Source: Planctomycetota bacterium (lineage in GTDB: Bacteria; Planctomycetota; UBA1135; UBA2386). From it: 64,000 nucleotides of DNA. The notes below the pieces were generated by a model that was not told the DNA's origin, did not search any database, and saw nothing but the letters and a program-made list of their open reading frames with translations. Numbering within the stretch: position 1 is the first letter of the stretch; the number at the start of each line of letters is the position of its first letter. The position numbers were made by a program, and so were the translations under genes. Below, piece by piece: positions 43,192 to 64,000 of this stretch. Where the stretch lies: positions 4,704,001-4,768,000 of the forward strand of contig OZ245006.1 of NCBI GenBank assembly GCA_965223545.1. The letters run 5' to 3'.

Positions 43192-46100
43192 CTAACAGGC
43201 TTTCGCCACCGGTGCCCGGTCGCGCTGCTGCTCGTTCGTCGGATCGCGCACCAGCCACCGCACTCCGGCGCGCAGGTCCTCGAGGATCAGATACCCCGAC
43301 GGCACCAGGATCAGCGTGATCAGGGTGGCGAACAGGACGCCGAACGCCAACGACACCGCCATCGGCATCAAGAACTGCGCCTGCACGCTGCGCTCGAGCA
43401 GCATCGGGGTCAGGCTGGCGAACGTGGTCAGCGACGTCAGCAGAATCGGACGAAAGCGCGCTGCGCCGGCCTGATGCACCGCGGCGACGCGGCCGTGGCC
43501 TTCGCGCCGCCGCTGGTTGACGTAGTCGACCAGCACGAGGCTGTCGTTGACCACGACGCCGGTCAGTGCCACCAGCCCAAGCATCGAGACGATGCTCAAC
43601 TCCATGCCCATGAAGACGTGGCCCCAGATGGCGCCGACCAGGCCGAACGGAATCACGGCCATCACCATCAGTGGCTGGGTGTAGGAGCGGAACGGGATCG
43701 CCATCAGGGCGTAGATCGCGATGAGCGCGACAATGGCTCCGCGCAACAGGCTGGCGAGCGTGCGCTGTTGCTCGCTGGCATCGCCCTCGAAGTCCGCGGT
43801 CAGGTCGGGGAACTCGGCGAGCAGGGCGGGGATCGCGTGCGCTTGCAGCTCGGCGACGATTTGGTTGGTGTTGGCGCGCTGGGCGTCGATGGCGGCGGTG
43901 ACGTTGACCGTGCGCGCCAGATCGGTGCGGGTGATCGTCGACAGGCCGCGGTCGCGCCGCAAACGAGCGACCGTCGACAGCGGGACTGCATCGCCGGTAG
44001 CGGTGCGGATTCGCATGTCGTCGAGATCGGCCACCGAGCGCCGCGCGTCGGCGGGGTAGCGCACCATCACCTTGATGTCGTCGCGGCCGCGCTGCAGCCG
44101 CTGCGCTTCTTCACCGTAGAACCCCTGCCGCACTTGTCGGGCAACGTCGCTCAACGTCAGGCCGAGGGCATCGGCCCGCGGCAACAGCTCGAAGCGCAGC
44201 TCGGGCTTGCCGGCGCGCAGGCTGTCGGCGATGTCGACGACGCCGTCGTAGCTGGCCAGCGCCGCTTTGAGGCGGTCGGCGGCGGCGCGCAGCGTGGCGA
44301 TGTCGCCGGCGGCAAGCTGCACGTCGATGTCGGGGCCGGCGCGCACGATCGTCGAGGTGAACGCGATCTCGTAGCGGTCGACGATGTCGCCGGCCAGCGC
44401 GCGCCAGCGGCGCTGGACCTCCTCGGCGGAGATCTCGCGCTCCTCGGAGGCCACCATCTGCACGTTGATCTCGCCCAGGTGCGAGCCCGACTGCGCGTCC
44501 GCCATCACTCCGGCGTTGCGCGCCATGTCGAGCTGGTAGGGCTGCTCGCCGATCGAAGTGAGGACATGGCGGAACACCGGCGCGCCGTGCTCGCGCTCGA
44601 GGTCGTCGCCGAGAGTCGTGGCGGCGGTCTCGAGCTGTCGCAGCACCGCGCGGGTGTCCGCGGCCGGAGTGCCCAACGGCAGCACCACCGAGGCCACGAC
44701 GTTGTCGCCTTCGACAGCGGGAAAGAAGTCGAACCGGATCCAGCCGCCGGCCACCAGGGTCAGCGTGATCAGCAGCGTGCCGATGCCGGTCGACCAGGTC
44801 AGGTAGCGCCAGCGCAGGCACACCGCCAGCACCGGGCGGTAGACGCGGTCGACGAACGACTCGAGCCCGCGCGACAGAGGGCGCTGCAGCGCGCCCCACG
44901 CGCGTCCGACGACGGCGAAGGCCCGTCCGATTCCGCGCCTGGGGCGGGCCTCGCCGTCGGCGCGCTCGTGCGAGAGGTGCGCCGGCAGAATCAGCTTGGA
45001 CTCGATCAGCGAGAACGCGAGACAGGGGATCACGATCAGCGGCACGTGCCGCCAGAGATCGCGCGCGTTGGTGTCGACGTCCAGCAGCGGAGTAAACGCC
45101 GCGACGGTCGTCATCACGCCGAACACCACGGGCAAGGCGACCAACTTGGAGCCGCGGATCGCGGCCTCGACACCGCTGGCTCCGCCCCGCAGTTGCTTGA
45201 AGACGCTCTCGCCGACGACGATGGCGTCGTCGACGACGATGCCGAGCACCAGGATGAACGCGAACAGCGACACCATGTTGATCGACACGCCGAACGTCGG
45301 CATCAGAGCGATGGCGCCGAGGAACGAGATCGGGATGCCCAGGCTGACCCAGAACGCCAGCCGGAAACGCAGGAACAGCGCCAGCACGCAGAACACCAGC
45401 AGCAAGCCGGTCGCAGCGTTGCGCACCAGGAGGTCGATGCGGCTGTTGAGGATGACAGTCTCGTCGCGCCACGGCGTGAGCGTGACGCCATCGGGAAGCT
45501 CGGCCTGTTTGGTTGCGACGTAGGCGCGCGCCGCGCCGCTGATGTCGAGCGCGCTCTGGTCGCCGACGCGGTAGACCTGCACCATGACCGCCGGTTCGCC
45601 ATCGAAGCGTGCGGCGGTGTCGGCGTCGGCGAACCCGTCGGTCACGGTGGCGACCGCGCCGAGCTCGACGGTGGTGCCGTCCGGGCGGCGCAGAACCACG
45701 ATGCGCTCGAACTCCTCACGACTGCGCGCCTGGCCGGCCGTGCGCAGCAGGATTTCGCCCCCGGTGGTCTTCAGCGAACCGCCGGGCAAGTCCAGCGACG
45801 ATCGGCGCACGGCGGCCGCGACCGTGTCGAAGCCGATGCCGAAGCGCCGCAACGCCTCCTCGGCGACCTCGATCGAGATCTCGTCGGGTCGCACGCTGAC
45901 CAGCTCGACCTGCGTGATGTCGGGCAAGCGCGCCAGCTCGTCGCGGACCTGCTGGCCGACGTTCTTGAGGGCGCGCTCGTCGAGGTCGCCGGAGATGGCG
46001 ATGTTGAGCACTTGTCGGCGCAGGACGACCTCCTGCACGATCGGCTTCTCGCTCTCGTCGGGAAACGTGTCGATCGCGTCGACGCGCGTCTTGACGTCGT

Positions 46101-46437
46101 TCAGCATCGCCGAGGCCTCGATCCCGGGGAGCAGCTCGACGTTGACCGCACCGCCGTTCTCGGCGGCCCGCGAGGTGATGCGCTTGACGCCGGTGAGTCC
46201 TTGGACCGCCTCCTCGATCCGCTGGCAGATCGAGTACTCGACCTCGTCCGGCGTGGCGCCGGGGTAGGCGACGGTGACGGCGATGGTTTGGGCGGCGATC
46301 TCCGGGAACACCTCCTTCTTGATGACCGGCAGCATCATCAAGCCGGAGACCACGATGAGCCACATCAACAGGTTGGCGGCGACGGTGTTGCGCGTGAACC
46401 ACGCGATCACACCGCGATGCTCGTTTGGCGTGGTCAT
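43192..46437 (-). CDS. RND efflux transporter permease (AcrB/AcrD/AcrF family)
   Basis: 1081 aa; 'GIVVDDAIVVGE', 'GVVVNDSLVLV' and 'RFRPILLTSLTT'. Confidence 0.95.
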   Translation of the reverse strand: MTTPNEHRGVIAWFTRNTVAANLLMWLIVVSGLMMLPVIKKEVFPEIAAQTIAVTVAYPGATPDEVEYSICQRIEEAVQGLTGVKRITSRAAENGGAVNVELLPGIEASAMLNDVKTRVDAIDTFPDESEKPIVQEVVLRRQVLNIAISGDLDERALKNVGQQVRDELARLPDITQVELVSVRPDEISIEVAEEALRRFGIGFDTVAAAVRRSSLDLPGGSLKTTGGEILLRTAGQARSREEFERIVVLRRPDGTTVELGAVATVTDGFADADTAARFDGEPAVMVQVYRVGDQSALDISGAARAYVATKQAELPDGVTLTPWRDETVILNSRIDLLVRNAATGLLLVFCVLALFLRFRLAFWVSLGIPISFLGAIALMPTFGVSINMVSLFAFILVLGIVVDDAIVVGESVFKQLRGGASGVEAAIRGSKLVALPVVFGVMTTVAAFTPLLDVDTNARDLWRHVPLIVIPCLAFSLIESKLILPAHLSHERADGEARPRRGIGRAFAVVGRAWGALQRPLSRGLESFVDRVYRPVLAVCLRWRYLTWSTGIGTLLITLTLVAGGWIRFDFFPAVEGDNVVASVVLPLGTPAADTRAVLRQLETAATTLGDDLEREHGAPVFRHVLTSIGEQPYQLDMARNAGVMADAQSGSHLGEINVQMVASEEREISAEEVQRRWRALAGDIVDRYEIAFTSTIVRAGPDIDVQLAAGDIATLRAAADRLKAALASYDGVVDIADSLRAGKPELRFELLPRADALGLTLSDVARQVRQGFYGEEAQRLQRGRDDIKVMVRYPADARRSVADLDDMRIRTATGDAVPLSTVARLRRDRGLSTITRTDLARTVNVTAAIDAQRANTNQIVAELQAHAIPALLAEFPDLTADFEGDASEQQRTLASLLRGAIVALIAIYALMAIPFRSYTQPLMVMAVIPFGLVGAIWGHVFMGMELSIVSMLGLVALTGVVVNDSLVLVDYVNQRRREGHGRVAAVHQAGAARFRPILLTSLTTFASLTPMLLERSVQAQFLMPMAVSLAFGVLFATLITLILVPSGYLILEDLRAGVRWLVRDPTNEQQRDRAPVAKAC

Positions 46438-47651
46438 CGCGGAGCTCTCGGTGCTGCGGATTCGACGCGGACTCGCATCCCATCGTGCGGCGCCAGCAGG
46501 CGCGTGACGCAGACTCGATCACCGTCGGTGAGGCCGTCGTCGATCAGCACGCGGTCGCCCTCGCGCCGCGCGACGCGCACCTGTCTGCGGGCGAGGCGAT
46601 CATCGCCATCGACGATCCAGACCGCGCCGTCGTCGCCGACCGCGGCCGCGGGGAGTTCGGCCACCGCGGGCAGCGTCTTGCCCTCGATCTCGGCGAGGAC
46701 GAACATGCCGACGGCCAGCGGTGGGCGCTCGGGCGCGTCGCCGCGGTCATAGGGGCGGTCGACGCGTGCGACGACGTACACCGTGCCCGTGCCGGCGTCG
46801 ATCTGGCCCTCGACCCGATCCAGCCGGCCGCGCCAGTGGTGGGTGGTGCCGGCGAAGTCAGCGCGCAGCACCACCGCGGGGCCGGCGGACGCGGCGCCGC
46901 TGCCGTGGTGGTCGAGGCCGATGTCGAGGAAGGCGAGGGAGTCGTCGGCCAATGGCAGCCGCACCTCGGCGCTGTCGATCGCGTAGATGGTGGCGAGTGC
47001 GACGCCCGGCCGGACGTACTGGCCGACGTCGATGTCCTCGACGCGCACGCGGCCGGCGAACGGCGCCAAGAGAGCGGTCCGCGCGCGCTGCAGCTCCGCC
47101 AGCTGCAGCGCTGCCTGCGCCGCGGCCAACGTCGCCTCGGCGCGCGCCACTTGCGGGCCGCGCAGCACCAGCGGCGACGGCGATCGCTGTAGGCCCAAAG
47201 TCTCCCACTCGGCCCTGGCGGTCGCCGCCTCGGCCTGCTCGATCTCCAGTTGCATCTCGGCCTGGGCGACCTCGGCGCGCGCTCGCGTGACCGCGAGTTC
47301 GTAGTCGCGCGGATCGAGCTGCACGAGCACCGTGCCCGCATCGAAGAAGCCACCGCTGGCGAGCGCCGGCGCGACCGACACGACGCGGCCACCGACCTCG
47401 GCGACCAGCTCGATCTCGATCGGTGGAGTCACCGTACCCTGCGCTGCGATGCGCACCGCGTGTTCGCGCAGCGCGACCGGCATCACTTCGACGACCGGCG
47501 CGGTATCGCTCGGGGTCGCGGCCTCCGGACGCGGCCGCTCCGCCAGCAGCCATGCCGCGCCGCCGATGGCAAACGCCAGCACCAGCACGGCAGCAGTGAT
47601 GTGGACGACGGTTCTCAACGGTCTGCCTCGCTCGTTGGTTTGCCGGTTCAT
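46434..47651 (-). CDS. RND efflux membrane-fusion (periplasmic adaptor) protein
   Basis: N-terminal TM, lipoyl half-motifs 'AEVGGRV' and 'APFAGRV', helical hairpin, and 'GLTDGDRV'. Confidence 0.93.
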   Translation of the reverse strand: MNRQTNERGRPLRTVVHITAAVLVLAFAIGGAAWLLAERPRPEAATPSDTAPVVEVMPVALREHAVRIAAQGTVTPPIEIELVAEVGGRVVSVAPALASGGFFDAGTVLVQLDPRDYELAVTRARAEVAQAEMQLEIEQAEAATARAEWETLGLQRSPSPLVLRGPQVARAEATLAAAQAALQLAELQRARTALLAPFAGRVRVEDIDVGQYVRPGVALATIYAIDSAEVRLPLADDSLAFLDIGLDHHGSGAASAGPAVVLRADFAGTTHHWRGRLDRVEGQIDAGTGTVYVVARVDRPYDRGDAPERPPLAVGMFVLAEIEGKTLPAVAELPAAAVGDDGAVWIVDGDDRLARRQVRVARREGDRVLIDDGLTDGDRVCVTRLLAPHDGMRVRVESAAPRAPR

Positions 47652-49096
47652 TCCTCGACGGCGTGGGCGTCGTCGCCGGTGGGGGGTGGTGGTGGTTCGA
47701 AGCCGCCGCCGAGTGCCAGGTGCAGATCGACGCGGGTGTCGAGCAGCGCGCGCTGCACCGCGATGCGTTGCCCGGCCGCGTCCAGCGCGCGCCGCTGCGC
47801 ATCGAGCACGGCGAGCAGGTCGGACAAGCCGCGCTGGTAGCGCTGCTCCGCGGTGGTGCGCGCTTCGACCGCGCGCCGCTCGGCTTCGAGCAGGGCGCTG
47901 GCGCGCTGGCGCAAGAAGGCCTCCGCCGCGAGCGCGGACTCGACTTCGGTGTAGGCCGTCAGGGCAGTACGCGCGTACGCCGCCGCCGCCTCACCGGCGC
48001 GGGCGCGGGCCAGCTCGACGTCCTTCTGCCGGCGACCGTTGGTGAGCAGCGGCTGCACGAGCCCGGCGGCCAGCTGCCAGACGTAGAAGTCGGGGTCGAC
48101 GAGGTCCTCGAGCGCGCCGCTGGCAGTGCCGGCGCTCGCGGTGAGGCCGAGGCTGGGAAACAGCGCGGCGCGCGCCGCCTCGACGCGCTGGCCGGTCGCG
48201 GCCAACCGCCGTTCGGCGGCCTGCACATCGGGGCGCCGGCAGAGCAGCGCCGCCGGCAGGCCCACGGGCGGTGGCTCCGGCAGGGCCGGCAGCTGCTCCG
48301 GCGCCGCCAGCAGGCCGCGCGGGTAGCGCCCCAGCAGCGCTTCCAGCTGGCGCCGTGCCCGCGCCTGCCGCTCCCGCTGGGCGGCGCCGCCGGCGCGGCT
48401 CGCGGCGAGGCTGGCCTGCGCGAGCTGTAGGTCGAGCACCGGGCGCACGCCGTTGACGACGCGGTCCTCGACGCGCGCCGCGGTCAGCGCGAACAGCTGC
48501 TCGGTCTCGTCGGCCAAGGCGATCTGCTGGCTGGTCTCGACCAGCGCCCAGTAGGCCTTCGCAGTCTGCGCTGCCAGCGACTGCCGCGCTCCGCGCAGCT
48601 CGTGCTCGGCGGCCTGGAGCTCGGCGACCGCCGCCCGCTGGCCGGCGCGCAGCCGACCCCAGAGGTCGATCTCCCAAGAGGTCGACAACGACACGCCGAG
48701 CTGGGTGAACGTGCGCGTGAGGGTGCCACCGGTGCCGGGAATCGGCAGGCCGATGAAGTTCTGCCGCTGACGCGACGCATCGAGGCGCAGGTCCAGGGTC
48801 GGCTGCAGCGCGACGCCGGCGAGCTCGGCCTGCACCGCGGCCGCCTGCATCCGCGCGGCCGCTGCGCGCAGGTCGTGATTGTGGCGTTGGGCCTCGACGA
48901 TCAGTGCCGACAGGCCGGCGTCGCCAAACCGCTGCCACCACTGTGTGTCGACGCTCGCCTCGCGGTCGGTGCTCGCCTGCCAGCGCGGTGGAATCGGCGC
49001 ATTCAGCGGTGGCGGGGCTACCGGCGGTGGCGACACGGTGCACGCGCTGACCGCGAGCGCAGCGAACAGAACGCAGCGGCGCCGCGGGTGCTTCAT
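47648..49096 (-). CDS. Outer-membrane efflux lipoprotein (NodT/OprM family)
   Basis: Lipobox 'VSAC', 'WWQRFGD', 'SWEIDLWGRLR', 'RRPDVQAAE' and 'LALGGG'. ATG 49096 overlaps the TetR stop. Confidence 0.93.
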   Translation of the reverse strand: MKHPRRRCVLFAALAVSACTVSPPPVAPPPLNAPIPPRWQASTDREASVDTQWWQRFGDAGLSALIVEAQRHNHDLRAAAARMQAAAVQAELAGVALQPTLDLRLDASRQRQNFIGLPIPGTGGTLTRTFTQLGVSLSTSWEIDLWGRLRAGQRAAVAELQAAEHELRGARQSLAAQTAKAYWALVETSQQIALADETEQLFALTAARVEDRVVNGVRPVLDLQLAQASLAASRAGGAAQRERQARARRQLEALLGRYPRGLLAAPEQLPALPEPPPVGLPAALLCRRPDVQAAERRLAATGQRVEAARAALFPSLGLTASAGTASGALEDLVDPDFYVWQLAAGLVQPLLTNGRRQKDVELARARAGEAAAAYARTALTAYTEVESALAAEAFLRQRASALLEAERRAVEARTTAEQRYQRGLSDLLAVLDAQRRALDAAGQRIAVQRALLDTRVDLHLALGGGFEPPPPPTGDDAHAVEE

Positions 49097-49743
49097 CGGC
49101 CGGGCTCCGTTGCGGTCTTGGTCCGCACCGGCGCGCGAAACCCCGCCGCCAAGTAGGGCACCAGATGATCCAAGATCACCTCGGGATCGCGCGTGTCGCC
49201 GACCGAGTCGCCGAGTAGGCACAGTCGATGCACGTCCGCCAGGGTGTGACACATCACGCCGATCATGAAGTGGACCCGCCACGCCAGTGTTGCCGGCGGC
49301 AGCTGCGGGGTGGCGCGGGCCAGAGCGGCGAGCAAACGGTCGCGGACTTCCTCGAATTGCGAAACGACCGGTTGCCAGTGAGCACCGGGTTCTGTGTAAG
49401 TGCGGCCGGCGAGCCGCATGAAGGTCGGTCCGTCCGGGTCGCGCACCAACCGCAGCGCCGGCGCCAAGAACACCTCCAACACCTCCTCCAACGTCGGCTC
49501 GGTCTGGGCGCGCTCGAGTGCGTCGAGTCCCTCGATGCGGGCGCGATTGATCGGCGCGATCCGGCGCTCGAACACCGCCTGCCACAGCGCTTCCTTGGAG
49601 CCGAAGTGGTAGTGCACCGCGGCGAGGTTGGCCTCGGCGCGGGCGGTGATCGCGCGCAGGCTGGTGGCGGCGAAACCGTGATCGGCGAAGAGCGCTTCGG
49701 CGGCGTTGAGGATGCGTTCGCGGGTGTCCTGGGCAGGATTCAT
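49093..49743 (-). CDS. TetR family regulator (PsrA-like)
   Basis: 'TRERILNAAEALFADHGFAATSLRAITARAEANLAAVHYHFGSKEAL' and C-terminal 'YLAAGFRAP'. Confidence 0.9.
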   Translation of the reverse strand: MNPAQDTRERILNAAEALFADHGFAATSLRAITARAEANLAAVHYHFGSKEALWQAVFERRIAPINRARIEGLDALERAQTEPTLEEVLEVFLAPALRLVRDPDGPTFMRLAGRTYTEPGAHWQPVVSQFEEVRDRLLAALARATPQLPPATLAWRVHFMIGVMCHTLADVHRLCLLGDSVGDTRDPEVILDHLVPYLAAGFRAPVRTKTATEPGR

Positions 49744-49757
49744 GGACCGGATTGGAG

Positions 49758-49773
49758 TCAAACGTTCGTTTGA
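49758..49773. promoter_or_regulatory. Palindromic TetR operator TCAAACG-TT-CGTTTGA (PsrA-box-like)
   Basis: Perfect 7-bp inverted repeat 14 nt upstream of the TetR ATG; contains CAAAC-N4-GTTTG. Confidence 0.8.
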
Positions 49774-57143: not shown

Positions 57144-59921
57144 TCACTGCACCACCGCGCCCGCCTGGCCCCGCAGCTGGCCGTCGGCATCGATCCACGA
57201 GTTGAGCACGATGCCGGTGATCGGGTCGGTGAGGCGCTGGATCAAGGTCGCGCCGAGCGGACCCGCCATCGCCGGATTCTGCGCGCCGGTGCGCAACGCC
57301 GCGCCGCCACCGGGGGCCAACAACACGTGGTTGCTGGAGCCGGTCGACGCGCCGCTGCCGTCGACGATGCGGTCGAGGTTGTAGAACACTCTGGCGGGGT
57401 CCCAGATGGATGCCGGCGCGACGCCATTGCAGCCGGCGCGGTTGACGTTGTTGTCGAGCGGGTTGGTCGGACAGCCGTTCTGATCGAACAGGAACAGACC
57501 GCTGCCGAGTCCGGCGACCATGTGCACCCAGAGCGGCGAGTCGAGCTGGTTGCTCGGGTTTTGGCCGAAGTGCTGGCGCAGCTGGTTGAAGTCGAGGCTG
57601 CTGAAGTCGCCGTTTGCCATCGCGGTGCGGAACGCGTCGTAGGCGGCACCGTGCGTGGCGAGCGCGTTGTCGGTGAGGTGGCACGCGACGCAGTAGCGCG
57701 GGCCCTCGTCGGTGGCAGTCACGCGGCCGCGGATCGAGTGCGCCATCATCGCGTTGTGGCTGAGCGATGGGTGCCCGGTCGCGGGGTTGGCGCCGCCGCC
57801 GTTGCGATCGGAGAACGCCATCGTCCGGCTGCGGTTGCCGTTGAGATCTTCGTAGGTGAAGAACGTCTTGGTGTTGGCGCAGACCTGCTCGATCCGGTTG
57901 CGCGGCCCCACTCCGAGCTGGAAGAACACCGGCGACTGGTAGACGAAGTCCGCCTCGCGCTCGCGGAACACGATGCGCTGGCCGGTGATGTTGCTGAAGT
58001 TGTTGCCGGTGTCGTAGTCGCCCTCGAGGTGGCAGCCCATGCAGGTGTTGGTCCACGCCGAGTGGCACGACGCGCAGCTCATGGTGTCCGCGTGGCTGAA
58101 ACCCGACGCCGCGACGCCGTTTTGCAACGGTCCGATGCCGGTGTTGGGGTCGCCGTCGGCGCGTCCCATCGCGTAGCTGGCGCGCGGGCTGTAGACCGGC
58201 TGGTTGTCGAACGGATCGCGCACGCCACTGTCGACCACGGTGTCGCGGGTTTGCGGCACGAAGTGGCGACGTCCGGTCACACGGCTCGTCAGGTAGAAGT
58301 GGCCGTCGCTCTCGCGCACGACGTGCGGCAGGGGGTTGCCGGCGGTGTCGACCGCGACCTGCGCGGCGGCGCCGGCGTAGGTCGTGCCGGCGACCGTGCT
58401 GGCGTGGCTGTCGACGCTGCCGTGGCAGCTCTCGCAGGCGATCGCCACCGCCTGCTCCATGCGGCTCAGGATGCGGTCGCCGGCTGGGTCGCCGGGAACG
58501 CCGCCGTGCAGGTCGTGGGTCCCGTGGCAGTCGATGCAGCCCATGCCGGCCTCGGCGTGCACGTCCGGCGGCGTGTCGTCCCGGCCGTCACCGTCGTAGT
58601 CCTCGAACGCGATGTACTGATGGTGATTGCGGCCGTTGAAGGTGCGGTTGCCGACGGCCGGATCGAACAGCCGAGTGTCGTCGCGGGTGTTGACGAAGGA
58701 CTGCGGGTTGGCCGGGTACTGCACCCCGTTGCGCAGATCCTGGTTTTGATCGAGTCGAATGCCCCAGTACTGCATCACCGTGCGGTTGGAACCCTGGTGG
58801 CAGCCGGCGCAGGTGTGATCGTCGATGCCCTCGATGCGTTCGCCGTTGGGCAGATCGCGGCGCACGCTGGCGATGCGGTGGGCGCGCACGTGGCTCAGCT
58901 CGGGCGGATCGATGTCGTCCGGGTCCAGCGGCTCGTCCTTGGGCACGTTGGGATCGAGGCTGCGGCTGCGGCCATCCAGGCTGTACGGCATGTGGCACGC
59001 CGTGCAACCCGACGAGCGGAAGTCACCGTAGCGGTTGTTGGCGCCGGCGCTGCCGAGGTGGCAGTCGCCACAGGTGAACGCCACTTGCTCCTGGTAGACG
59101 TGCGCCAGCGGCGAGTCGAGCTGCACCGAGTTGTCGGGGTTGAGGTAGTTGTGCAGCAGCAGCGCGTCGTAGTTCTGATTGCGGAACATGCTGTTCGGCG
59201 CTTCGACACCGTGCACGCTGTGCACCGGATACTCGGCCAGCCGGCCGACGCGGCCGACCTCTGCCGGGGCGCTGGCAAACATGTCGTCCTGCACCGCCCG
59301 GAAGCCGAGATCGGCGGCGGTGTCGTGGTAGAGGCCGCGGTTCTCGGCAACCTGGTTCTCGATGCCTGCGGCGTAGGTGGCGCCGGACAGGACGCCGGCT
59401 TCGGTCGCCAACAGGCTGTGCGCGACGGCGTCCGAGTGCGGAGCGTGGCATTGTCCGCATCCGCGGTTGGCTTGAGTGACGCGCAGATCGCCGGGGTTGA
59501 CGAACTGCAGGTAGTCGAGGGCCGTGTAGGTGACCCCGTTCACCGTGTAGTCCGGGTACTTGTCGACGCCGGTCAGGGTGAGGCGGTTGAAGTAGGCCTC
59601 GCGGTCGGTGCGCCACTGCTCGCGGTCGCCGATCTCGGGCGGCGGCGGCACGTGGCTCTGCGCGCGGTCGGCGCCATTGGGGTTGCCGCCGTGACAGGTG
59701 GTGCACTGCAGCTGCTCCGCGCCGGGGAAGGGATGAGGATCCTCGAGCCCGGGGCCGGCGTAATCGTCGGCCTGCGAGCCGTTGTGGCACTGCATGCATG
59801 ACTGCGCACTGGCGGCAAACTGCACCCGGCCGTCGGTGTCGCCGCAGCCGGTGAGCAGCGCGCCGGCCAGCAGCAGCGCGAGCCGCCCGGCCGGCAAGAG
59901 ACCAGAATCGATGTGCGTCAT
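57144..59921 (-). CDS. 11-heme cytochrome c lipoprotein (925 aa)
   Basis: Lipobox 'LLTGC'. CxxCH x11: CMQCH, CTTCH, CGQCH, CGDCH, CTACH, CAGCH, CIDCH, CESCH, CASCH, CMGCH, CVACH. GAGGA RBS. Confidence 0.92.
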   Translation of the reverse strand: MTHIDSGLLPAGRLALLLAGALLTGCGDTDGRVQFAASAQSCMQCHNGSQADDYAGPGLEDPHPFPGAEQLQCTTCHGGNPNGADRAQSHVPPPPEIGDREQWRTDREAYFNRLTLTGVDKYPDYTVNGVTYTALDYLQFVNPGDLRVTQANRGCGQCHAPHSDAVAHSLLATEAGVLSGATYAAGIENQVAENRGLYHDTAADLGFRAVQDDMFASAPAEVGRVGRLAEYPVHSVHGVEAPNSMFRNQNYDALLLHNYLNPDNSVQLDSPLAHVYQEQVAFTCGDCHLGSAGANNRYGDFRSSGCTACHMPYSLDGRSRSLDPNVPKDEPLDPDDIDPPELSHVRAHRIASVRRDLPNGERIEGIDDHTCAGCHQGSNRTVMQYWGIRLDQNQDLRNGVQYPANPQSFVNTRDDTRLFDPAVGNRTFNGRNHHQYIAFEDYDGDGRDDTPPDVHAEAGMGCIDCHGTHDLHGGVPGDPAGDRILSRMEQAVAIACESCHGSVDSHASTVAGTTYAGAAAQVAVDTAGNPLPHVVRESDGHFYLTSRVTGRRHFVPQTRDTVVDSGVRDPFDNQPVYSPRASYAMGRADGDPNTGIGPLQNGVAASGFSHADTMSCASCHSAWTNTCMGCHLEGDYDTGNNFSNITGQRIVFREREADFVYQSPVFFQLGVGPRNRIEQVCANTKTFFTYEDLNGNRSRTMAFSDRNGGGANPATGHPSLSHNAMMAHSIRGRVTATDEGPRYCVACHLTDNALATHGAAYDAFRTAMANGDFSSLDFNQLRQHFGQNPSNQLDSPLWVHMVAGLGSGLFLFDQNGCPTNPLDNNVNRAGCNGVAPASIWDPARVFYNLDRIVDGSGASTGSSNHVLLAPGGGAALRTGAQNPAMAGPLGATLIQRLTDPITGIVLNSWIDADGQLRGQAGAVVQ

Positions 59922-59984
59922 GGTCGTCCTCGATCGAGACCGCGCCGGCGGGCGCAGTGTCGGAGAATTGGACAGATCTTCTTC

Positions 59985-60000
59985 GGCAAGCCGTGCGCCG
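59985..60000 (-). promoter_or_regulatory. Possible sigma-54 promoter for the 11-heme cytochrome
   Basis: Minus strand CGGCGCACGGCTTGCC has GG-N10-GC spacing with TTGC, ~65 nt upstream of the ATG. The -24 box is imperfect. Confidence 0.35.
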
Positions 60001-60050
60001 CGCCTGTCCTCGCGCCCGCGCCGGGTCTCAGAGCGGGACCGCTCCAGTGT

Positions 60051-60719
60051 TCAGCGCACCCGAGCATGGCTCCAGCGGGTTTGAGGGTGGCAGCGATCGC
60101 ACCGCTGTACCCAGCCGAGCGGCACGTGCGGTGGGTTCTGCGTCGCGGCCGCGTCCAGCGCGTGGCAGGTCGAGCACTCGTGGTCGATCGGCTGGAAGTT
60201 GCCGACGAACGAGCCCGGGTGGCAGCGGTGGCAGGACACCGCCAGGTGGGCGCCGGTCAGCGGAAAGCGCGTGCGCGCGTGCAGCTCGATCTGCCCGGTG
60301 GGATGCCACGTTTGCTCGCCGTGGCAATCGGTGCAGGTCGGACCGAGATCGCCGGAGTGCACGTCCTCGTGGCATCCGGCGCAGCCGCGCGCGGCGAAGT
60401 CGGCCACCGGTCCGCGGTCGTTGTGACAGCGCAAGCACTGCGCCGTCGCATGCGCGCCGTGCAGCGCCACCCCGGTGTGCGCCTCGTGATCGAAGTCGAA
60501 GTCGTCGACCAGCTGGTGCCACGAATCGCCGACGTGGCACAGCGTGCAATCGCCGGGAAAGGTGTCGTGCGGTAGAACTGGCCCGAGGCCGCTCCACCAT
60601 CGATGCACCGCCGCGTCCGGTGTTCGCTGCACGGCGCAGGCGATGACCGTGTAGGCGATCGCCGCGGCGAGCATCGGCCAGCGCAGTCGGCGTCGAGGCG
60701 AGGGGTGGTTGTTGTGCAT
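60051..60719 (-). CDS. 7-heme cytochrome c, probable lipoprotein
   Basis: ATG 60719 follows GAGG; basic N-region, hydrophobic stretch and 'VIAC'. CxxCH x7: CTLCH, CLRCH, CAGCH, CTDCH, CHRCH, CSTCH, CDRCH. Confidence 0.9.
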   Translation of the reverse strand: MHNNHPSPRRRLRWPMLAAAIAYTVIACAVQRTPDAAVHRWWSGLGPVLPHDTFPGDCTLCHVGDSWHQLVDDFDFDHEAHTGVALHGAHATAQCLRCHNDRGPVADFAARGCAGCHEDVHSGDLGPTCTDCHGEQTWHPTGQIELHARTRFPLTGAHLAVSCHRCHPGSFVGNFQPIDHECSTCHALDAAATQNPPHVPLGWVQRCDRCHPQTRWSHARVR

Positions 60720-60730
60720 GGGTGCCTCGC

Positions 60731-62446
60731 TCAGAAGCTCCGGTCGACGTGGATGCCGACCGACCAAGAGGTGTCTTCGTCCCAGAACAAGGCCTGGGCC
60801 GACAGCGACAGCACCGCGCCGGCGGACAGCAAGAACGTGCGCGCGCAGTGCGCGCGGTGCTGGAACAAATCGTCGGCGTCGTCGTCGAAGCCGCGCAGAT
60901 GGTGGTGGGACAGCTCGTACAGCGCCTCCCACGAGCCGTTGTCGTCGTGCACGCCGTAGCGCACGCGGCTGCCGATCACCGACGAGAACTGTCCGGCGTT
61001 GCCGAAGACGGCCAGCTCCAGCCGACCCCGCTCGGACCACACGCCCTGTGCATCCACGCCGGTCTCGATCGCGGCGCCGTCGTCGTCCTCGTCGTCCCAA
61101 CCGCTGATGCTGAGCCGAACGCGACGGCCGGGCGAAGTGACGCGCCAACCGCTGAGCGTCAGCCGGTCATATCGATAGTCGCGCAGCTCGGGCGCGGTCG
61201 GCAGCGGCACGAACTCGACGCGCAGGATCTCGGGAAAGCGAACCCGCCGGTAGGTGGCGTCGATGCCGCTGCCGCTCTGCCAGCGGCGCGTCAGCGAGAC
61301 CAGCGCTTGGCTGATCTCGGGGCCACTCCCCTTGGTGTCGTCGCGGCCGTAGTAGAAGTCGACCCACGCGCTGGCGTGCGCCTGCCAGCCCTCGTCGGGC
61401 AGGTAGCGCGACTTGAGCACGACCAGGTCGCGGTCGGTCTTGCCGTGGTGCAGCGTCTTCTGGTACGCGGCCGCCGCCGTGAATCGCTCGCGCGTGTCCG
61501 CGGCCCATTGGTAGTAGATCGAGGCCTGCAGGTCGGCGAAGGAATCGAACTCGTCGTCGAGCTCGGGCAGGTAGCCGAAGCTGGCGCCGAACCGCTGGCC
61601 GTCGGCGCCGCGGTGGCTCACCTGGGCACCGTCGACGACCCCGAGCTCGGGGAGGTCGTCGTGCAAGAAGCGGCCCACCTGCCAGCGCGTCGGCTGAAAC
61701 CGGGTGCCGCCCCGGGCGTAGCTCAACCGGTGCGCCAGCAGGTCGAGGCCGTCGGTGTCGTCGTGCTCGGTCTTCGCCTCGAGCTCCGCGTCCAGGAACA
61801 GTGCGCCGCCGCGGCCGAACGGGTTCTCGATGTCGAACTCGACACCGGCCCGGGCGAAGCTGTTGTCGAACGAGTCGTAGCTGTTGTGATCGATCGCTCC
61901 CGCGAGAGCGACGCGGCCGCGCATCCGCCGCGGCCGCTCCGCCGGCCGCACCGGTCGCACCTGAGCCAGCAGCGGCATACCGGCCCGCCAGTCTGGGTCG
62001 CGGTTGGTCCAGCGCGGATCGCCGGCCTGCGGTGCATCGGGCGTGTCCGGAGCAGTGGGGGGCGGCGGGCGCGGGGTCGGGTCGTTGCGCGTGGGCGGCT
62101 GCGCCGACGGCGGGGGGGCGAGGCGCGAAGCCGGAATGCGTACCTGGCCGCGAGCCCCGACCGGCACGCGCGCGCCACTCTCGTGCAGCTCGACGATGGC
62201 GCTGCGCTCGGCCAGCTGGATCACCGTGCCGCGCAGCGTCGCACCGTCACGCGGCACGATCGTGATGATGTCGCCGTTCGCCAGCCCGTCGCGCTGGCCG
62301 CGGTCGATGATCACCTGGCCACCGGGTCGCGCCGCGGTGACGCGCAGCGCCAGCTCGTGCAGTGCGCCGGGCTGCTGCGCGCCGAGAACGGGGGCTGCCA
62401 GCGCGAGCAGCAGCAGACCGAGCCAGAGGTGAGCGGTGGGCGTCAT
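60731..62446 (-). CDS. Putative outer-membrane beta-barrel (porin) with an N-terminal soluble domain and Pro-rich linker
   Basis: Signal peptide 'LWLGLLLLALAAPVLGAQ'; amphipathic strands ('WQVGRF', 'RFGASFGY', 'WQAHASAWVDFY'); C-terminal beta-signal-like 'WSVGIHVDRSF'. ATGA-coupled to the upstream cytochrome. Confidence 0.75.
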   Translation of the reverse strand: MTPTAHLWLGLLLLALAAPVLGAQQPGALHELALRVTAARPGGQVIIDRGQRDGLANGDIITIVPRDGATLRGTVIQLAERSAIVELHESGARVPVGARGQVRIPASRLAPPPSAQPPTRNDPTPRPPPPTAPDTPDAPQAGDPRWTNRDPDWRAGMPLLAQVRPVRPAERPRRMRGRVALAGAIDHNSYDSFDNSFARAGVEFDIENPFGRGGALFLDAELEAKTEHDDTDGLDLLAHRLSYARGGTRFQPTRWQVGRFLHDDLPELGVVDGAQVSHRGADGQRFGASFGYLPELDDEFDSFADLQASIYYQWAADTRERFTAAAAYQKTLHHGKTDRDLVVLKSRYLPDEGWQAHASAWVDFYYGRDDTKGSGPEISQALVSLTRRWQSGSGIDATYRRVRFPEILRVEFVPLPTAPELRDYRYDRLTLSGWRVTSPGRRVRLSISGWDDEDDDGAAIETGVDAQGVWSERGRLELAVFGNAGQFSSVIGSRVRYGVHDDNGSWEALYELSHHHLRGFDDDADDLFQHRAHCARTFLLSAGAVLSLSAQALFWDEDTSWSVGIHVDRSF

Positions 62447-64000
62447 GGTTGGCGGCGCCGCCGGCGGCGCAGTGGGTCGTAGTGCTCGCGGTGGCAGTCG
62501 GTGCACTGGTGCGCGATCGGTCGGTAGCGGATCACGCCGTCGTTGCCTTGTCCGTCGGCGAGGTGGCAGGCGGCGCAGTCCAGCGCGCGGTGCTGCGCGC
62601 CGAGCGCGAACGCGGCATCGCGTTCGTGGTCGAAGCGCGACGCCGCAAAGGCGGTGGCCGGGTCGTGGCAGCGCTGACAGTCGGTGCGACCGGCGGCGTC
62701 GTCGAACTGGCCGCCGTGCGGATCGGTGTGGCAGTCCGCACACGCCGTGCCCCGCGCGCGGTGCCAGGTGCGGCCGTGGGCGTCGGCCGGCACCATCGGC
62801 GCATGGCAGGTCGAGCACGCGGCCTGTGCGTGCGCACCGGTCAGGGCAAAGCCGGTCCACTGGCCGTGGTCGAAGCCATGTGGAAGCGCGCGGAACGAGC
62901 TGTCGGCGTGACACCGCGCGCAGTCCGCCCTGCCCTCGACGGTCGCCGGCAGGCCGGGTCCGTCGAAGCCGCCGCGGTGCGGGTCTCGATGGCAGCTGTG
63001 ACACCCCTCGAACGCGCCGAAGTGATCGGCGACCCGACCGAGCGTGCGGCCGCTGGCGTCCGGGGTCGCGCTGCGCGGGTGGCAGCTCTCGCAACCGGCC
63101 TGTTGGTGGGCACCGCCGACCGCGAAGCCGGTCCAGGCGCCGTGGTCGAAGCCTTCCCGCAGCGCGGGGTGCGCGAAGCCGTGCGTGGTGTGACAGTGCG
63201 CGCAGCGCCCGTGCGGCGGCCGGTCGATCGCCGCGTCGAACCGGTCGAACTGGCCGCCGTGCGCGTCGCGATGGCAGTCGGCGCAGCGCGTCGAGGTGCC
63301 GGCAAAGCGCCGCACGCCGTCGCCGTCCGCAGTGTGGCAGTCGGCGCAGGCGAGGTCCTGGTGGGCGCCGTCGAGCGGCAGCGCTGCGCCGGCGTGTCGT
63401 TCGCGGTCGAAGGCGGGCGGTGCAAAGTGGTCGCGGTCGTGGCACGCCCGGCAGTGCCGCCCGGCGTCGGCACCGGTCTGGAAGCGGCTGCCGGCGAACT
63501 GGCCGGCGTGCGGGTCCGCGTGGCAGCGGTGGCAGTCGTCAGCGGTCCGGCCCGGGTGCCGGGTGGCGAAGTCGGCGGCGTCGGGTGCATGGCACCGGGC
63601 GCAGTCGACGTCTTGGTGCGGTCCCGCCAGGGCAAAGCCGGTGGCCGCGTGTTGCGCCGGTGTGAGCCGCTCCGCCTCCCGCCAGTCGTGGTGCTCGTGC
63701 CGGTGGCAGTCGGCGCAGGCGTTGCCGGCCGGTCCGCCGTGCTGTGCAGCGGCGGCCTCGGCGAACGGCTGTGTGTGCGGTGAGGCGTGGCAGTCGTCGC
63801 AGCGGCGGGGCGTGCCGACGTTCTCGGCGCGTTCGAGCGCGTGTGCGCTGCCGGCCGCGTGGCAGGTGCGGCAGTCGAGGGCGGCGTGGGCGCCCGCCAA
63901 CCGCAGATGCCGGTCGTGGCCGGCCGCGCGGTGCTCGGTGAACGCGGCCTGCGTGTGGCAGGCCGCGCAGTCGCGGTGCATGCGGCCTTGGTGCGGGTCT
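62443..64000 (-). CDS. Very high-heme cytochrome c (at least 18 CxxCH), 5'-truncated by the window edge
   Basis: 18 CxxCH in the visible ~518 aa, arranged in repeats 'HxxxGFxLxGAH-x4-CxxCH...CxxCHxDPHxGxF...CxxCH'. The frame is open to 64000 (DPHQGR precedes the listed Met). Confidence 0.93.
   Translation of the reverse strand, partial: DPHQGRMHRDCAACHTQAAFTEHRAAGHDRHLRLAGAHAALDCRTCHAAGSAHALERAENVGTPRRCDDCHASPHTQPFAEAAAAQHGGPAGNACADCHRHEHHDWREAERLTPAQHAATGFALAGPHQDVDCARCHAPDAADFATRHPGRTADDCHRCHADPHAGQFAGSRFQTGADAGRHCRACHDRDHFAPPAFDRERHAGAALPLDGAHQDLACADCHTADGDGVRRFAGTSTRCADCHRDAHGGQFDRFDAAIDRPPHGRCAHCHTTHGFAHPALREGFDHGAWTGFAVGGAHQQAGCESCHPRSATPDASGRTLGRVADHFGAFEGCHSCHRDPHRGGFDGPGLPATVEGRADCARCHADSSFRALPHGFDHGQWTGFALTGAHAQAACSTCHAPMVPADAHGRTWHRARGTACADCHTDPHGGQFDDAAGRTDCQRCHDPATAFAASRFDHERDAAFALGAQHRALDCAACHLADGQGNDGVIRYRPIAHQCTDCHREHYDPLRRRRRRQP

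Follow-up and report, generated by a model that had tools for sequence, protein, structure and literature searches.

We asked whether a cluster of multiheme cytochrome genes at the end of a 64,000-nucleotide stretch of DNA (the window) encodes an electron conduit across the cell envelope and, if so, where its electrons would come from. The initial annotation had read four co-directional genes as a trans-outer-membrane conduit with at least 36 hemes and a possibly undescribed architecture in a planctomycete-like host; named relatives bear out the host.

Organization and conservation of the cluster

The four genes lie where they had been placed, all on the minus strand. H11 (57144-59921) encodes a 925-aa lipoprotein with 11 CxxCH motifs and the lipobox LTGC26. 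H7 (60051-60719; 222 aa, 7 CxxCH motifs, lipoprotein Cys28) starts 11 nt after the stop codon of the barrel gene, POR (60731-62446; 571 aa, C-terminal Phe), the start of which is overlapped by the H23 gene through an ATGA. The large cytochrome, H23, had been credited with at least 18 hemes; its gene (62443-64557; contig 4766443-4768557) begins 557 nt beyond the end of the window and when complete encodes 704 aa with 23 CxxCH motifs, bringing the total of H23, H7 and H11 to 41 hemes (23/7/11). The sequence beyond position 64000, where an inner-membrane partner was to be sought, contained a fifth gene, OX (extended window coordinates 64554-66797; contig 4768554-4770797; minus strand), which lies wholly beyond the window, is ATGA-coupled to the H23 gene and encodes a 747-aa protein with a predicted di-heme cytochrome-b domain. 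The 41 CxxCH motifs in the 1,851 residues of the three cytochromes are ~600-fold denser than the background of 355 in 9,898,321 residues (all six-frame ORFs of the genome, real cytochromes included), and this density, together with conservation, ruled out a shadow-ORF artefact. Recent foreign insertion was also ruled out (GC 0.69-0.76 vs 0.70 for the genome). Cytochrome c maturation genes are present in the genome. A sigma-70 promoter scan of the locus gave 0 sites vs 0.2 expected, and the 4 terminator-like sites (2.2 +/- 1.4 expected) offered nothing usable. None of the 4 sequencing runs listed, all from 1 study, is of RNA, which bears on expression neither way.

The cluster is real and conserved across many planctomycetes. 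Among the loci of the best 80 of 112 barrel matches, the order OX-H23-POR-H7-H11 was found in 45 of the 46 where the flanks to either side were long enough; the partial orders OX-H23-POR and POR-H7-H11 were kept in 55 of 55 and 59 of 60, respectively. The 4-nt overlaps recur at 32 of 47 called OX/H23 junctions and 28 of 50 called H23/POR junctions. Heme counts are equally constant: among full-length orthologues passing coverage and start filters, 54 of 55 H23 sequences carry 23 motifs, all 62 H7 sequences 7 and all 56 H11 sequences 11. One genome whose locus is labelled Paracoccaceae also holds a close match to OX, which makes the label doubtful. Of the 50 loci whose upstream sequence exceeds 1.5 kb, 43 have a gene for a DUF2959 lipoprotein (PF11172, 76.8 bits vs a cut-off of 26.8) upstream of OX and on the same strand; here this gene (extended coordinates 73041-73739; contig 4777041-4777739; minus strand) has moved ~6.2 kb from OX, with Kelch-like and RCC1-repeat genes between. 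Of 44 loci, 9 have ccsA/resB beside the operon; apart from an unnamed lipoprotein, the other identifiable conserved neighbours are of generic types (a sulfatase, a hybrid kinase and an FG-GAP protein). No iron transporter was found among the identifiable conserved neighbours, and assimilatory iron reduction is therefore without contextual support.

Proposed electron entry through OX

OX comprises, in order, an N-terminal TM helix, a two-cluster ferredoxin with one Cys missing from the second cluster motif, a TrxR/YpdA-type FAD/NADPH domain and a C-terminal membrane domain (~452-735). The flavoprotein domain contains GxGxSA together with R356 (53 of 53 sequences) and R362 (52 of 53), which we take to be an NADPH-type signature. 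Among solved structures it comes closest to YpdA/Bdr and to TrxR-type ferredoxin-NADP reductases, and its score against the YpdA/Bdr model TIGR04018 (113) is under the cut-off of 339.9. Since CxxC is absent from residues 170-445 in all 53 sequences, a disulfide-cycling TrxR was ruled out. The membrane domain, with four helices from hydropathy and a fifth by eye, carries the motifs W537xxxH541x13H555, S578GxxG582 and W707xxxH711x13H725; its four His and both Trp are invariant (53/53), and the S/T-GxxG motif has S in 3 and T in 50 sequences. The last helix aligned weakly (E 0.02) with a cytochrome b6 helix that is presumably heme-ligating, and PF01794 (ferric reductase-like/NOX) scored 24.1 vs a cut-off of 28 over one helix only, with matching His spacing. 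OX would thus be predicted to bind FAD, two Fe-S clusters and two b hemes.

Our leading reading, to which we give about an even chance, is that the operon encodes an outward, quinone-independent trans-envelope conduit fed from cytoplasmic NADPH. Electrons would pass from NADPH to FAD in the TrxR-type ferredoxin-NADP reductase domain of OX, then through the two Fe-S clusters to the two b hemes. MsrQ provides a precedent, with electrons coming from a cytosolic NADH oxidoreductase and not from ubiquinone (PMC12525009).

The same membrane motifs also occur in the inner-membrane protein of PCC3 and PCC4, PCC3 being a genome-predicted porin-cytochrome cluster (He et al. 2017, PMC5566968; Hoover et al. 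2023, PMC10734462), and passages of He et al. propose a quinone-active cytochrome b there. The OX membrane domain might accordingly undergo electron exchange with the quinone pool, leaving the flavin/ferredoxin module as a side entry (an NADPH:quinone reductase) or a sensor. MsrQ indeed binds ubiquinone; however, its measured potentials speak against a ubiquinone donor (PMC12525009). The gene organization of relatives bears on this reading in both directions. Of 20 hand-picked divergent or second-copy loci, 5 encode the membrane domain on its own, as does Emticicia (below), which favours quinone exchange; yet all 20 have the flavin/ferredoxin module alongside the barrel (fused in 14, split in 5), and in every examined locus with enough flank the flavoprotein is fused or adjacent, which suggests an obligate donor. 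We therefore consider a quinone-linked system unlikely. A FastTree phylogeny of 40 barrel sequences, built from their last 410 residues, resolved the five-gene type poorly, and no order of events was drawn from it.

The Emticicia locus lies on a plasmid of Emticicia oligotrophica DSM 17448 (Bacteroidota; EMTOL_RS21085-21110), is annotated merely as ccsA, cytochrome c3 family, NAD(P)-binding and hypothetical proteins, and was the subject of no paper found in our literature searches. It encodes CcsA, a membrane protein with both WX3HX13H motifs, a flavin/ferredoxin protein 34% identical to OX, a 23-heme protein (28% to H23), a 40-heme protein (36% to H7) and a barrel homologue (profile E 3e-16). 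A plasmid search using the OX membrane domain as query gave no matches, although a profile does detect the Emticicia homologue. In contrast to the planctomycete cluster, OX is split into two genes, and H11 and DUF2959 are absent from the stretch. As this plasmid carries the split version, the core crosses phyla.

TrxR-type ferredoxin-NADP reductases are reversible, which counts for flow in the opposite direction, from an outside donor (an Fe(II) mineral, reduced humics, a partner cell or a cathode) to NADP+. PCC3 was also originally proposed in Fe(II) oxidisers, according to passages of He et al. (PMC5566968). However, transfer to NADP+ (~-320 mV) would oppose the membrane potential, the operon has no ion-coupled module, and by our estimate donors near or below ~-470 mV would be needed; inward flow is thus very improbable.

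A proposed path from the periplasm to the cell surface

H23 is heme-dense (30.6 aa per heme) and has an N-terminal hydrophobic helix (18-36), which points to a periplasmic location; besides its 23 CxxCH motifs it contains 24 further conserved His. Its closest solved match is 3ov0 (E 9.6e-9). Among NCBIfam models, H23 scored below the cut-off of the DmsE/MtrA decaheme family (47 vs 192) and H7 did not match it. The H7 profile matches H23 with a probability of 99.5, and by sequence the two belong to the same repeat family. In 63 sequences, all 14 His of H7 – 7 in CxxCH and 7 distal – are conserved at >=0.98 and Cys28 at 0.98. The conserved distal His are sufficient for bis-His ligation of each heme. 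H23 is a candidate periplasm-spanning wire, and H7, with its bis-His wire pattern, a candidate barrel-associated cytochrome.

The predicted barrel fold of POR held up on modelling. Downstream of a signal peptide, a small N-terminal beta domain (~29-105) and a Pro-rich linker, the AF2 model (pLDDT 88.3) shows 22 strands from E174 to E570, and POR thus models as a 22-strand outer-membrane barrel (174-570); its C-terminal F571 is conserved at >=90%. The structural matches are membrane barrels, the best of SusC type (Z 16.0), with MtrB (6r2q_B) at rank 35 (Z 12.7, rmsd 7.4). POR had no NCBIfam match at E<=0.1, MtrB/PioB family included, and the MtrB family is absent from the Pfam matches of 89 family members. 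The Atlas places POR in unnamed clusters, of which the three shown are mostly from Planctomycetota, and all 88 proteins from a second barrel search had been recovered previously.

H11 is less wire-like, at 84 aa per heme. Its lipobox Cys26 is invariant (57/57 sequences), 14 conserved His lie outside its CxxCH motifs, and it carries a conserved acidic loop, DxDGDGxDD, which we assume binds Ca. Its best NCBIfam match is ExtM (NF040943; 78.4 bits vs a cut-off of 800, E 3.6e-22), and the Atlas places it with an ExtM cluster (0.91); by sequence, H11 is a distant relative of ExtM-type cytochromes. It did not match TIGR03507 (OmcA/MtrC) and scored 25.3 against PF22113, below the cut-off of 30, with 11 hemes vs the decaheme OmcA/MtrC. 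The whole-protein model (pLDDT 78.5) gave no Foldseek match at E<=0.001, and its best VIA match, the octaheme cytochrome 1sp3, was weak (Z 4.6, rmsd 4.9, 265 aligned). Searched as a whole model, H11 has no clear solved fold. It is a candidate terminal surface cytochrome or enzyme, and an orthologue occurs in the cultured Saltatorellus ferox Poly30.

These properties also fit a reductase confined to the periplasm. NADPH electrons would then cross the inner membrane only, with H7 and H11 attached to the periplasm-facing leaflet of the outer membrane and POR serving as a solute channel; H11 would reduce something soluble, for instance an oxyanion of selenium, tellurium, sulfur or nitrogen, on the model of the Geobacter Ext selenite/tellurite operon. 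The ExtM relationship, the octaheme match, a faint match to NrfA (E 8e-4) and the position of H11 as the most conserved member (58-69% identity vs 34-47% for the barrel) favour such an enzyme. However, the ExtM score is far below its cut-off, H11 lacks CxxCK, its additional His are enough for every heme, and 18 of the 20 divergent loci lack H11 within the stretch examined; there, the second cytochrome consists purely of wire-like repeats with 10-49 hemes, a better match to a conduit than to a solute channel. Periplasmic confinement therefore seems improbable to us.

In the NADPH-fed outward conduit, the b hemes of OX would reduce the membrane-tethered H23. This wire would span the periplasm and deliver electrons at or within the 22-strand barrel, where the cytochrome in place would be H7 and/or the end of H23 itself; from there they would reach H11 at the cell surface, where an outside acceptor would be reduced. 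The order of partners, electron direction and independence from quinones are proposed features of this scheme, as are surface exposure of H7 and H11 and transfer across the outer membrane. Against surface export, a lipobox is no proof of exposure, as lipoproteins may face the periplasm; H11 is more enzyme-like than wire-like, given its heme spacing and ExtM-like core; and the modelled POR lumen would be narrower than that of MtrB, a barrel we take to have 26 strands. Electrons moving outward from NADPH follow the membrane potential and, as for NOX, would spend it instead of conserving it; rather than respiration, the likely purpose is therefore redox disposal or the reduction of compounds at the cell surface. 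To our knowledge, cultured carriers of the cluster include strains not known as metal reducers. Classical extracellular respiration need not be the role of this cluster, given the separate MtrC-like and DmsE-family loci in the same genome.

Characterised Gram-negative conduits, as far as we know, draw electrons from the quinone pool. If true, an NADPH-wired conduit would have a different entry route and purpose (redox disposal, or surface reduction of metals, humics or oxyanions), in bacteria that are not commonly regarded as electroactive. More tentatively, we propose a widespread cross-phylum class of quinone-independent exporters, in which an unbroken heme wire from the cytoplasm to the exterior receives its electrons from one NADPH-oxidising flavo-iron-sulfur-cytochrome b and, in planctomycetes, ends in an 11-heme surface enzyme of unsolved fold. 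Heterotrophic planctomycetes and Bacteroidota would then possess a surface reductive capacity that has gone unrecognised. Cultured organisms carry parts of the system: S. ferox Poly30 the H11 orthologue and E. oligotrophica DSM 17448 the split core.

Relation to known systems

MtrCAB/MtoAB share the logic of periplasmic cytochrome, barrel and surface lipoprotein cytochrome, with generic barrel similarity. They are fed by quinol dehydrogenases such as CymA, not by a flavoprotein, and the present cluster falls outside the MtrB, DmsE and MtrC families; the mismatch to MtrA/MtrC noted initially thus stands, no member of the MtrA, MtrB or MtrC families being present. PCC4 has three periplasmic cytochromes with 4, 5 and 10 hemes, vs 23, 7 and 11 here, and the tetraheme UetA and triheme UetDEG are absent among the five genes. 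ExtM, from the Geobacter selenite/tellurite operon (NF040943), shares a heme core with H11; in contrast, H11 has 925 aa vs a 599-position model, and the Rieske-type partner is absent among the five genes. MsrQ/Fre, NOX/STEAP and MsrQ-like flavinylation systems share the path from NAD(P)H through flavin and membrane b heme to an extracytoplasmic acceptor, as described in parts of PMC12525009 and PMC8238504, the main text of the latter not containing the word 'porin'. Here, however, the dehydrogenase has a TrxR/YpdA fold and comes with a ferredoxin, and electrons would leave through a multiheme wire and an outer-membrane barrel.

Closest are the clusters of He et al. (2017, PMC5566968). Passages of that paper describe groups of a multiheme cytochrome, an HX13H membrane protein and an 'other redox protein', with the same three-part inner-membrane logic; two have a porin. 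Unlike the present cluster, they have 7-18 hemes and mostly lack a porin, and those passages name no redox protein and propose no NADPH-fed route. PCC3, as described there in part, combines a barrel with a periplasmic repeat cytochrome of 21-27 hemes, another cytochrome and an inner-membrane protein in which SGxxG occurs together with two WX3HX13H motifs; the Leptothrix PCC3 has 24 hemes, 22 TM strands and 22 hemes. Here a 22-strand modelled barrel gene adjoins multiheme cytochrome genes, H23 has 23 hemes at a low residue-to-heme ratio, and the OX membrane domain carries both motifs (as S/T-GxxG). In contrast to PCC3, the ~300-aa stand-alone membrane protein is replaced by a fusion to ferredoxin and an FAD/NADPH domain within 747-aa OX; two lipoprotein cytochromes (7 hemes, and 11 at the sparse spacing of H11) replace a single heme-dense extracellular one of 10-35+ hemes; a DUF2959 lipoprotein is added; and the host is a planctomycete, the comparison with proteobacterial PCC3 being one of published descriptions. 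No orthology to a characterised complex was found. Our literature searches found no description of an NADPH/ferredoxin module fused to a PCC3-type membrane domain, an ExtM-related 11-heme lipoprotein without a clear solved fold, or a co-conserved DUF2959 lipoprotein. Because the donor is fused to the membrane domain in OX, the predicted PCC3 inner-membrane protein becomes testable. The architecture is thus undescribed only in part: all four PCC3 component types are present and the blueprint is this known, predicted type, whereas the cytoplasmic NADPH/ferredoxin entry module and the 11-heme lipoprotein are new.

Gene cluster, barrel and cytochromes

The four co-directional genes described in the initial annotation were recovered with matching positions, lengths and CxxCH counts, all on the minus strand. 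They encode the lipoprotein cytochromes H11 (57144-59921; 925 aa, 11 CxxCH) and H7 (60051-60719; 222 aa, 7 CxxCH), the barrel POR (60731-62446; 571 aa) and the cytochrome H23 (62443-64557 in window coordinates extended into the genome; 704 aa, 23 CxxCH), whose gene runs past the window end. H23 had been credited with at least 18 hemes and the cluster with at least 36; the full gene has 23, and the full-length genes in the genome (8.1 Mb, two contigs, GC 69.7%) bring the CxxCH count of H23, H7 and H11 to 41. These motifs are about 600 times denser in the three cytochromes (41 in 1,851 residues) than in the six-frame background (355 in 9,898,321). The window itself covers C1:4704001-4768000 of this genome. 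Sequence past position 64000, which the initial annotation had proposed to retrieve, contained a fifth minus-strand gene, OX (64554-66797 in extended coordinates; 747 aa), which has an ATGA overlap with the H23 gene and encodes a flavin/ferredoxin/membrane-domain protein.

POR was modelled with AlphaFold2 on an alignment of 89 homologues (pLDDT 88.3). After the signal helix comes a small beta domain, which a Pro-rich linker of low confidence joins to 22 strands (residues 174-570). Its structural matches in Foldseek and VIA were membrane beta-barrels (ushers, porins and TonB-dependent transporters), so that the model supports the barrel predicted earlier. The best match reached Z 16.0 (rmsd 5.1, 370 aligned), and MtrB ranked 35th (Z 12.7, rmsd 7.4, 352 aligned); POR matched no NCBIfam family, and the MtrB family was absent from the Pfam matches of 89 barrel-family members. 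The barrel also carries conserved Asp/Glu-rich stretches (60731-61600), and the C-terminus of H23 is a basic tail, rich in Arg, that is present in the consensus (62443-62470); as a speculation, these could form an electrostatic docking site.

H7 and H23 belong to one repeat family (profile match, probability 99.5). Conserved His residues numbered 23 proximal and 24 further in H23, 7 and 7 in H7, and 11 and 14 in H11, thus enough for bis-His ligation of all hemes. The solved structure nearest to H23 was 3ov0 (E 9.6e-9), the Geobacter dodecaheme GSU1996; proteins of this type extend about 1 nm per heme, and on that scale H23 could span the periplasm. The lipobox Cys was conserved in H7 (0.98, n=63) and in H11 (57/57). 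H11 has 84 aa per heme and an ExtM-like core (NCBIfam 78 bits against a cut-off of 800; Atlas ExtM cluster 0.91), ExtM being a model from a Geobacter selenite/tellurite operon. This likeness bears on an alternative reading of the cluster, which we consider unlikely: an ExtM-like reductase would work within the periplasm alone, and the barrel would be a solute channel. The H11 model (pLDDT 78.5) had no Foldseek match at E<=0.001, and its best VIA match, an octaheme cytochrome, reached only Z 4.6.

Conservation and distribution

A scan of species genomes yielded 112 barrel relatives, and loci were analyzed for the best 80 of these, whose titles named Planctomycetota, planctomycete subgroups or plain "bacterium", apart from one Paracoccaceae. 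Among these 80, the five genes kept the same order in 45 of the 46 loci with enough flank, which bears out the synteny that the initial annotation had proposed to survey. In the sole exception (L071), the cytochromes have 26 and 17 hemes, and no gene for H11 lies within 10 kb. Heme counts, taken from full-length orthologues passing filters, were 23 in 54/55, 7 in 62/62 and 11 in 56/56. The cluster is real and strongly conserved. Furthermore, of 50 loci in which the flank exceeded 1.5 kb, 43 encoded a DUF2959 lipoprotein upstream of OX; both genes were called in 44 loci, and in 43 of these the lipoprotein gene was no more than 400 nt from the start of OX. Frameshifts in OX of L069 (at about 7690) and in OX, H7 and H11 of L008:5600-15212 are probably assembly errors or decay.

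Barrel profile matches at E<=0.001 occurred in at least 51 of 401 sampled genomes of the phylum, and at E<1e-80 in at least 35, among them 14 of the 27 further genomes from the host's order; both figures are floors because the search was stricter than usual. Of 36 genomes in the host's family, 23 encode full-length H11, which in two of them is split over contig ends, and 28 encode the OX membrane domain. Elsewhere in the order, full-length H11 was present in 2 of 24 genomes. An H11 orthologue (63%), Poly30_12690, is encoded by Saltatorellus ferox, a cultured member of the OM190 group according to the Saltatorellota preprint (10.1101/817700).

For the wider family, we picked 20 loci among the weaker or second barrel matches. 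Each of the 20 encodes the flavin/ferredoxin module together with two or more repeat cytochromes, the second with 10-49 hemes. OX was fused in 14 (one frameshifted); in 5 the flavoprotein and the membrane protein are separate, and the last locus, on a short contig, was counted with neither form. H11 occurred in two, each time beside a distant barrel, and the DUF2959 lipoprotein in none of the 20. An Emticicia oligotrophica (Bacteroidota) plasmid encodes ccsA, a membrane protein with both WX3HX13H motifs, a flavoprotein (34%), a barrel homologue and cytochromes with 23 and 40 hemes. The divergent loci and this plasmid therefore define an invariant core of flavin/ferredoxin module, di-heme membrane domain, long wire, second wire and barrel, and H11, the short H7 and DUF2959 are markers of the planctomycete variant. 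Locus L102:1-9359 has a single barrel, behind which lie three lipoprotein cytochromes of the H7 family in tandem, carrying 38, 17 and at least 49 hemes.

OX and the proposed electron path

OX matched a 4Fe-4S dicluster and a pyridine nucleotide-disulfide oxidoreductase domain in Pfam and NCBIfam, its flavin domain was nearest to YpdA (113 against an NCBIfam cut-off of 340), and its last helix gave weak cytochrome b561 and ferric reductase matches. The closest solved sequences were YpdA/Bdr (E 2e-36) and TrxR-type ferredoxin-NADP reductases. Across 53 sequences, counted with the frameshifted L069 copy excluded, the flavin domain contained no CxxC (0/53), and GxGxSA was present together with R356 (53/53) and R362 (52/53), which make up an NADPH-type signature. 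In the second Fe-S motif, His, Val, Ile or Ala replaces the second Cys; a [3Fe-4S] or His-ligated cluster would be expected at C91/C97/C70. Two membrane-domain triads, W537/H541/H555 and W707/H711/H725, were invariant. This domain belongs to a large family, with 3,749 representatives in a 50%-identity library at E<=0.001; of 10 stand-alone members looked up, taxon names on two clusters were Deltaproteobacteria/Myxococcaceae and Acidobacteria.

The domains, motifs, fold and linkage of the cluster are shown by the analysis. With moderate confidence, we infer its cofactors, partner order, location and direction to make up an outward, quinone-independent electron path from NADPH to the cell surface. 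Electrons would pass from NADPH through FAD to the Fe-S centers of OX, then by way of its b hemes to H23, on to a candidate barrel-associated cytochrome, and finally to H11, placed at the surface. Outward flow from NADPH would conserve no energy, and redox disposal or surface reduction is thus the likelier role; inward flow, the opposite direction, seems improbable. The membrane domain of OX has both motif types, two WX3HX13H and SGxxG, that define the PCC3/PCC4 inner-membrane protein in He 2017 (PMC5566968), where this protein is proposed to bind two b hemes and to be possibly quinone-active. A quinone-linked PCC3 model is accordingly a rival reading, though a doubtful one. For the NADPH-fed path, MsrQ offers a precedent: this membrane heme protein receives its electrons from a flavoprotein, and the quinone that it carries does not act as donor (PMC12525009).

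Host background and comparison with known systems

The initial annotation had counted a genome lacking cytochrome c maturation against a conduit; the host carries ccsA/resB at C1:703-706 kb, and these genes lie next to the operon in 9 of 44 loci. A lipoprotein accompanying resB/ccsA (L061:371-1588), with homologues in 12 loci, adjoins them in the host (C1:706-707 kb) and is possibly a maturation accessory. The genome also has four heme-copper oxidase family genes. At C1:6212296-6223464 are two MtrC/OmcA-like decahemes (206 bits against a cut-off of 209), a membrane pentaheme that weakly matches NrfH, a protein with 13 hemes and one of 611 aa without family. At C1:201560-205542, an 18-heme DmsE-family cytochrome (256 bits, above cut-off) precedes an 808-aa ORF that contains 3 CxxCH and weakly matches DUF6850, possibly another porin-cytochrome pair. 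Given the MtrC-like decahemes and the DmsE-family cytochrome, conventional conduits may thus coexist with the present cluster.

Elsewhere, the genome shows a second design for a membrane-bound NAD(P)H flavoprotein, related to that of OX: in the 822-aa product of C1:499044-501512, two flavin stretches resembling YpdA are fused to a membrane ferredoxin resembling NapH. C1:5001736-5007943 holds an octaheme with a weak hydrazine dehydrogenase/HAO-like match (75 bits against 900), a tetraheme nearby and an apparent Rieske protein. Between 49911 and 56870, a set of genes typical of planctomycetes converges on the cytochrome operon. The first encodes an ECF sigma factor that carries carboxypeptidase-regulatory repeats as a fusion, and genes for another ECF sigma factor and a TPR-containing Ser/Thr kinase follow. 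The window further contains an ordinary RND efflux operon (43192-49761: TetR regulator, outer-membrane-factor-like gene, HlyD adaptor, AcrB-family transporter) and a 628-aa ORF (24941-26827) with no Pfam match at E<=1e-8 and, by eye, a restriction-endonuclease-type N-terminus.

Among titles and abstract openings, with subscription journals mostly outside the search, we found no description of this cluster or of an NADPH-fed porin-cytochrome conduit; Tables S4/S5 of He 2017, its PCC4 redox-gene-domain figure or the bioRxiv supplements could list the flavoprotein link or these cytochromes. Four systems with 8-13 hemes are reported from Acidobacteriota and Verrucomicrobiota (Fiorito 2026, bioRxiv), and novel cytochrome clusters, left unnamed, from Planctomycetota (Olmsted 2022, bioRxiv). 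PMC8238504 describes NAD(P)H-linked MsrQ-like systems, with porins unmentioned there; the PCC3 literature also includes Hoover 2023 (PMC10734462). The initial annotation's suggestion of an undescribed architecture stands in part. The cluster follows the blueprint of PCC3, itself a predicted type (He 2017, PMC5566968), yet it lacks two defining PCC3 features, a stand-alone membrane protein of about 300 aa and a single heme-dense outer cytochrome with 10-35 or more hemes. It differs from PCC3 further in that a module for NADPH entry is added and the terminal cytochrome is unusual.
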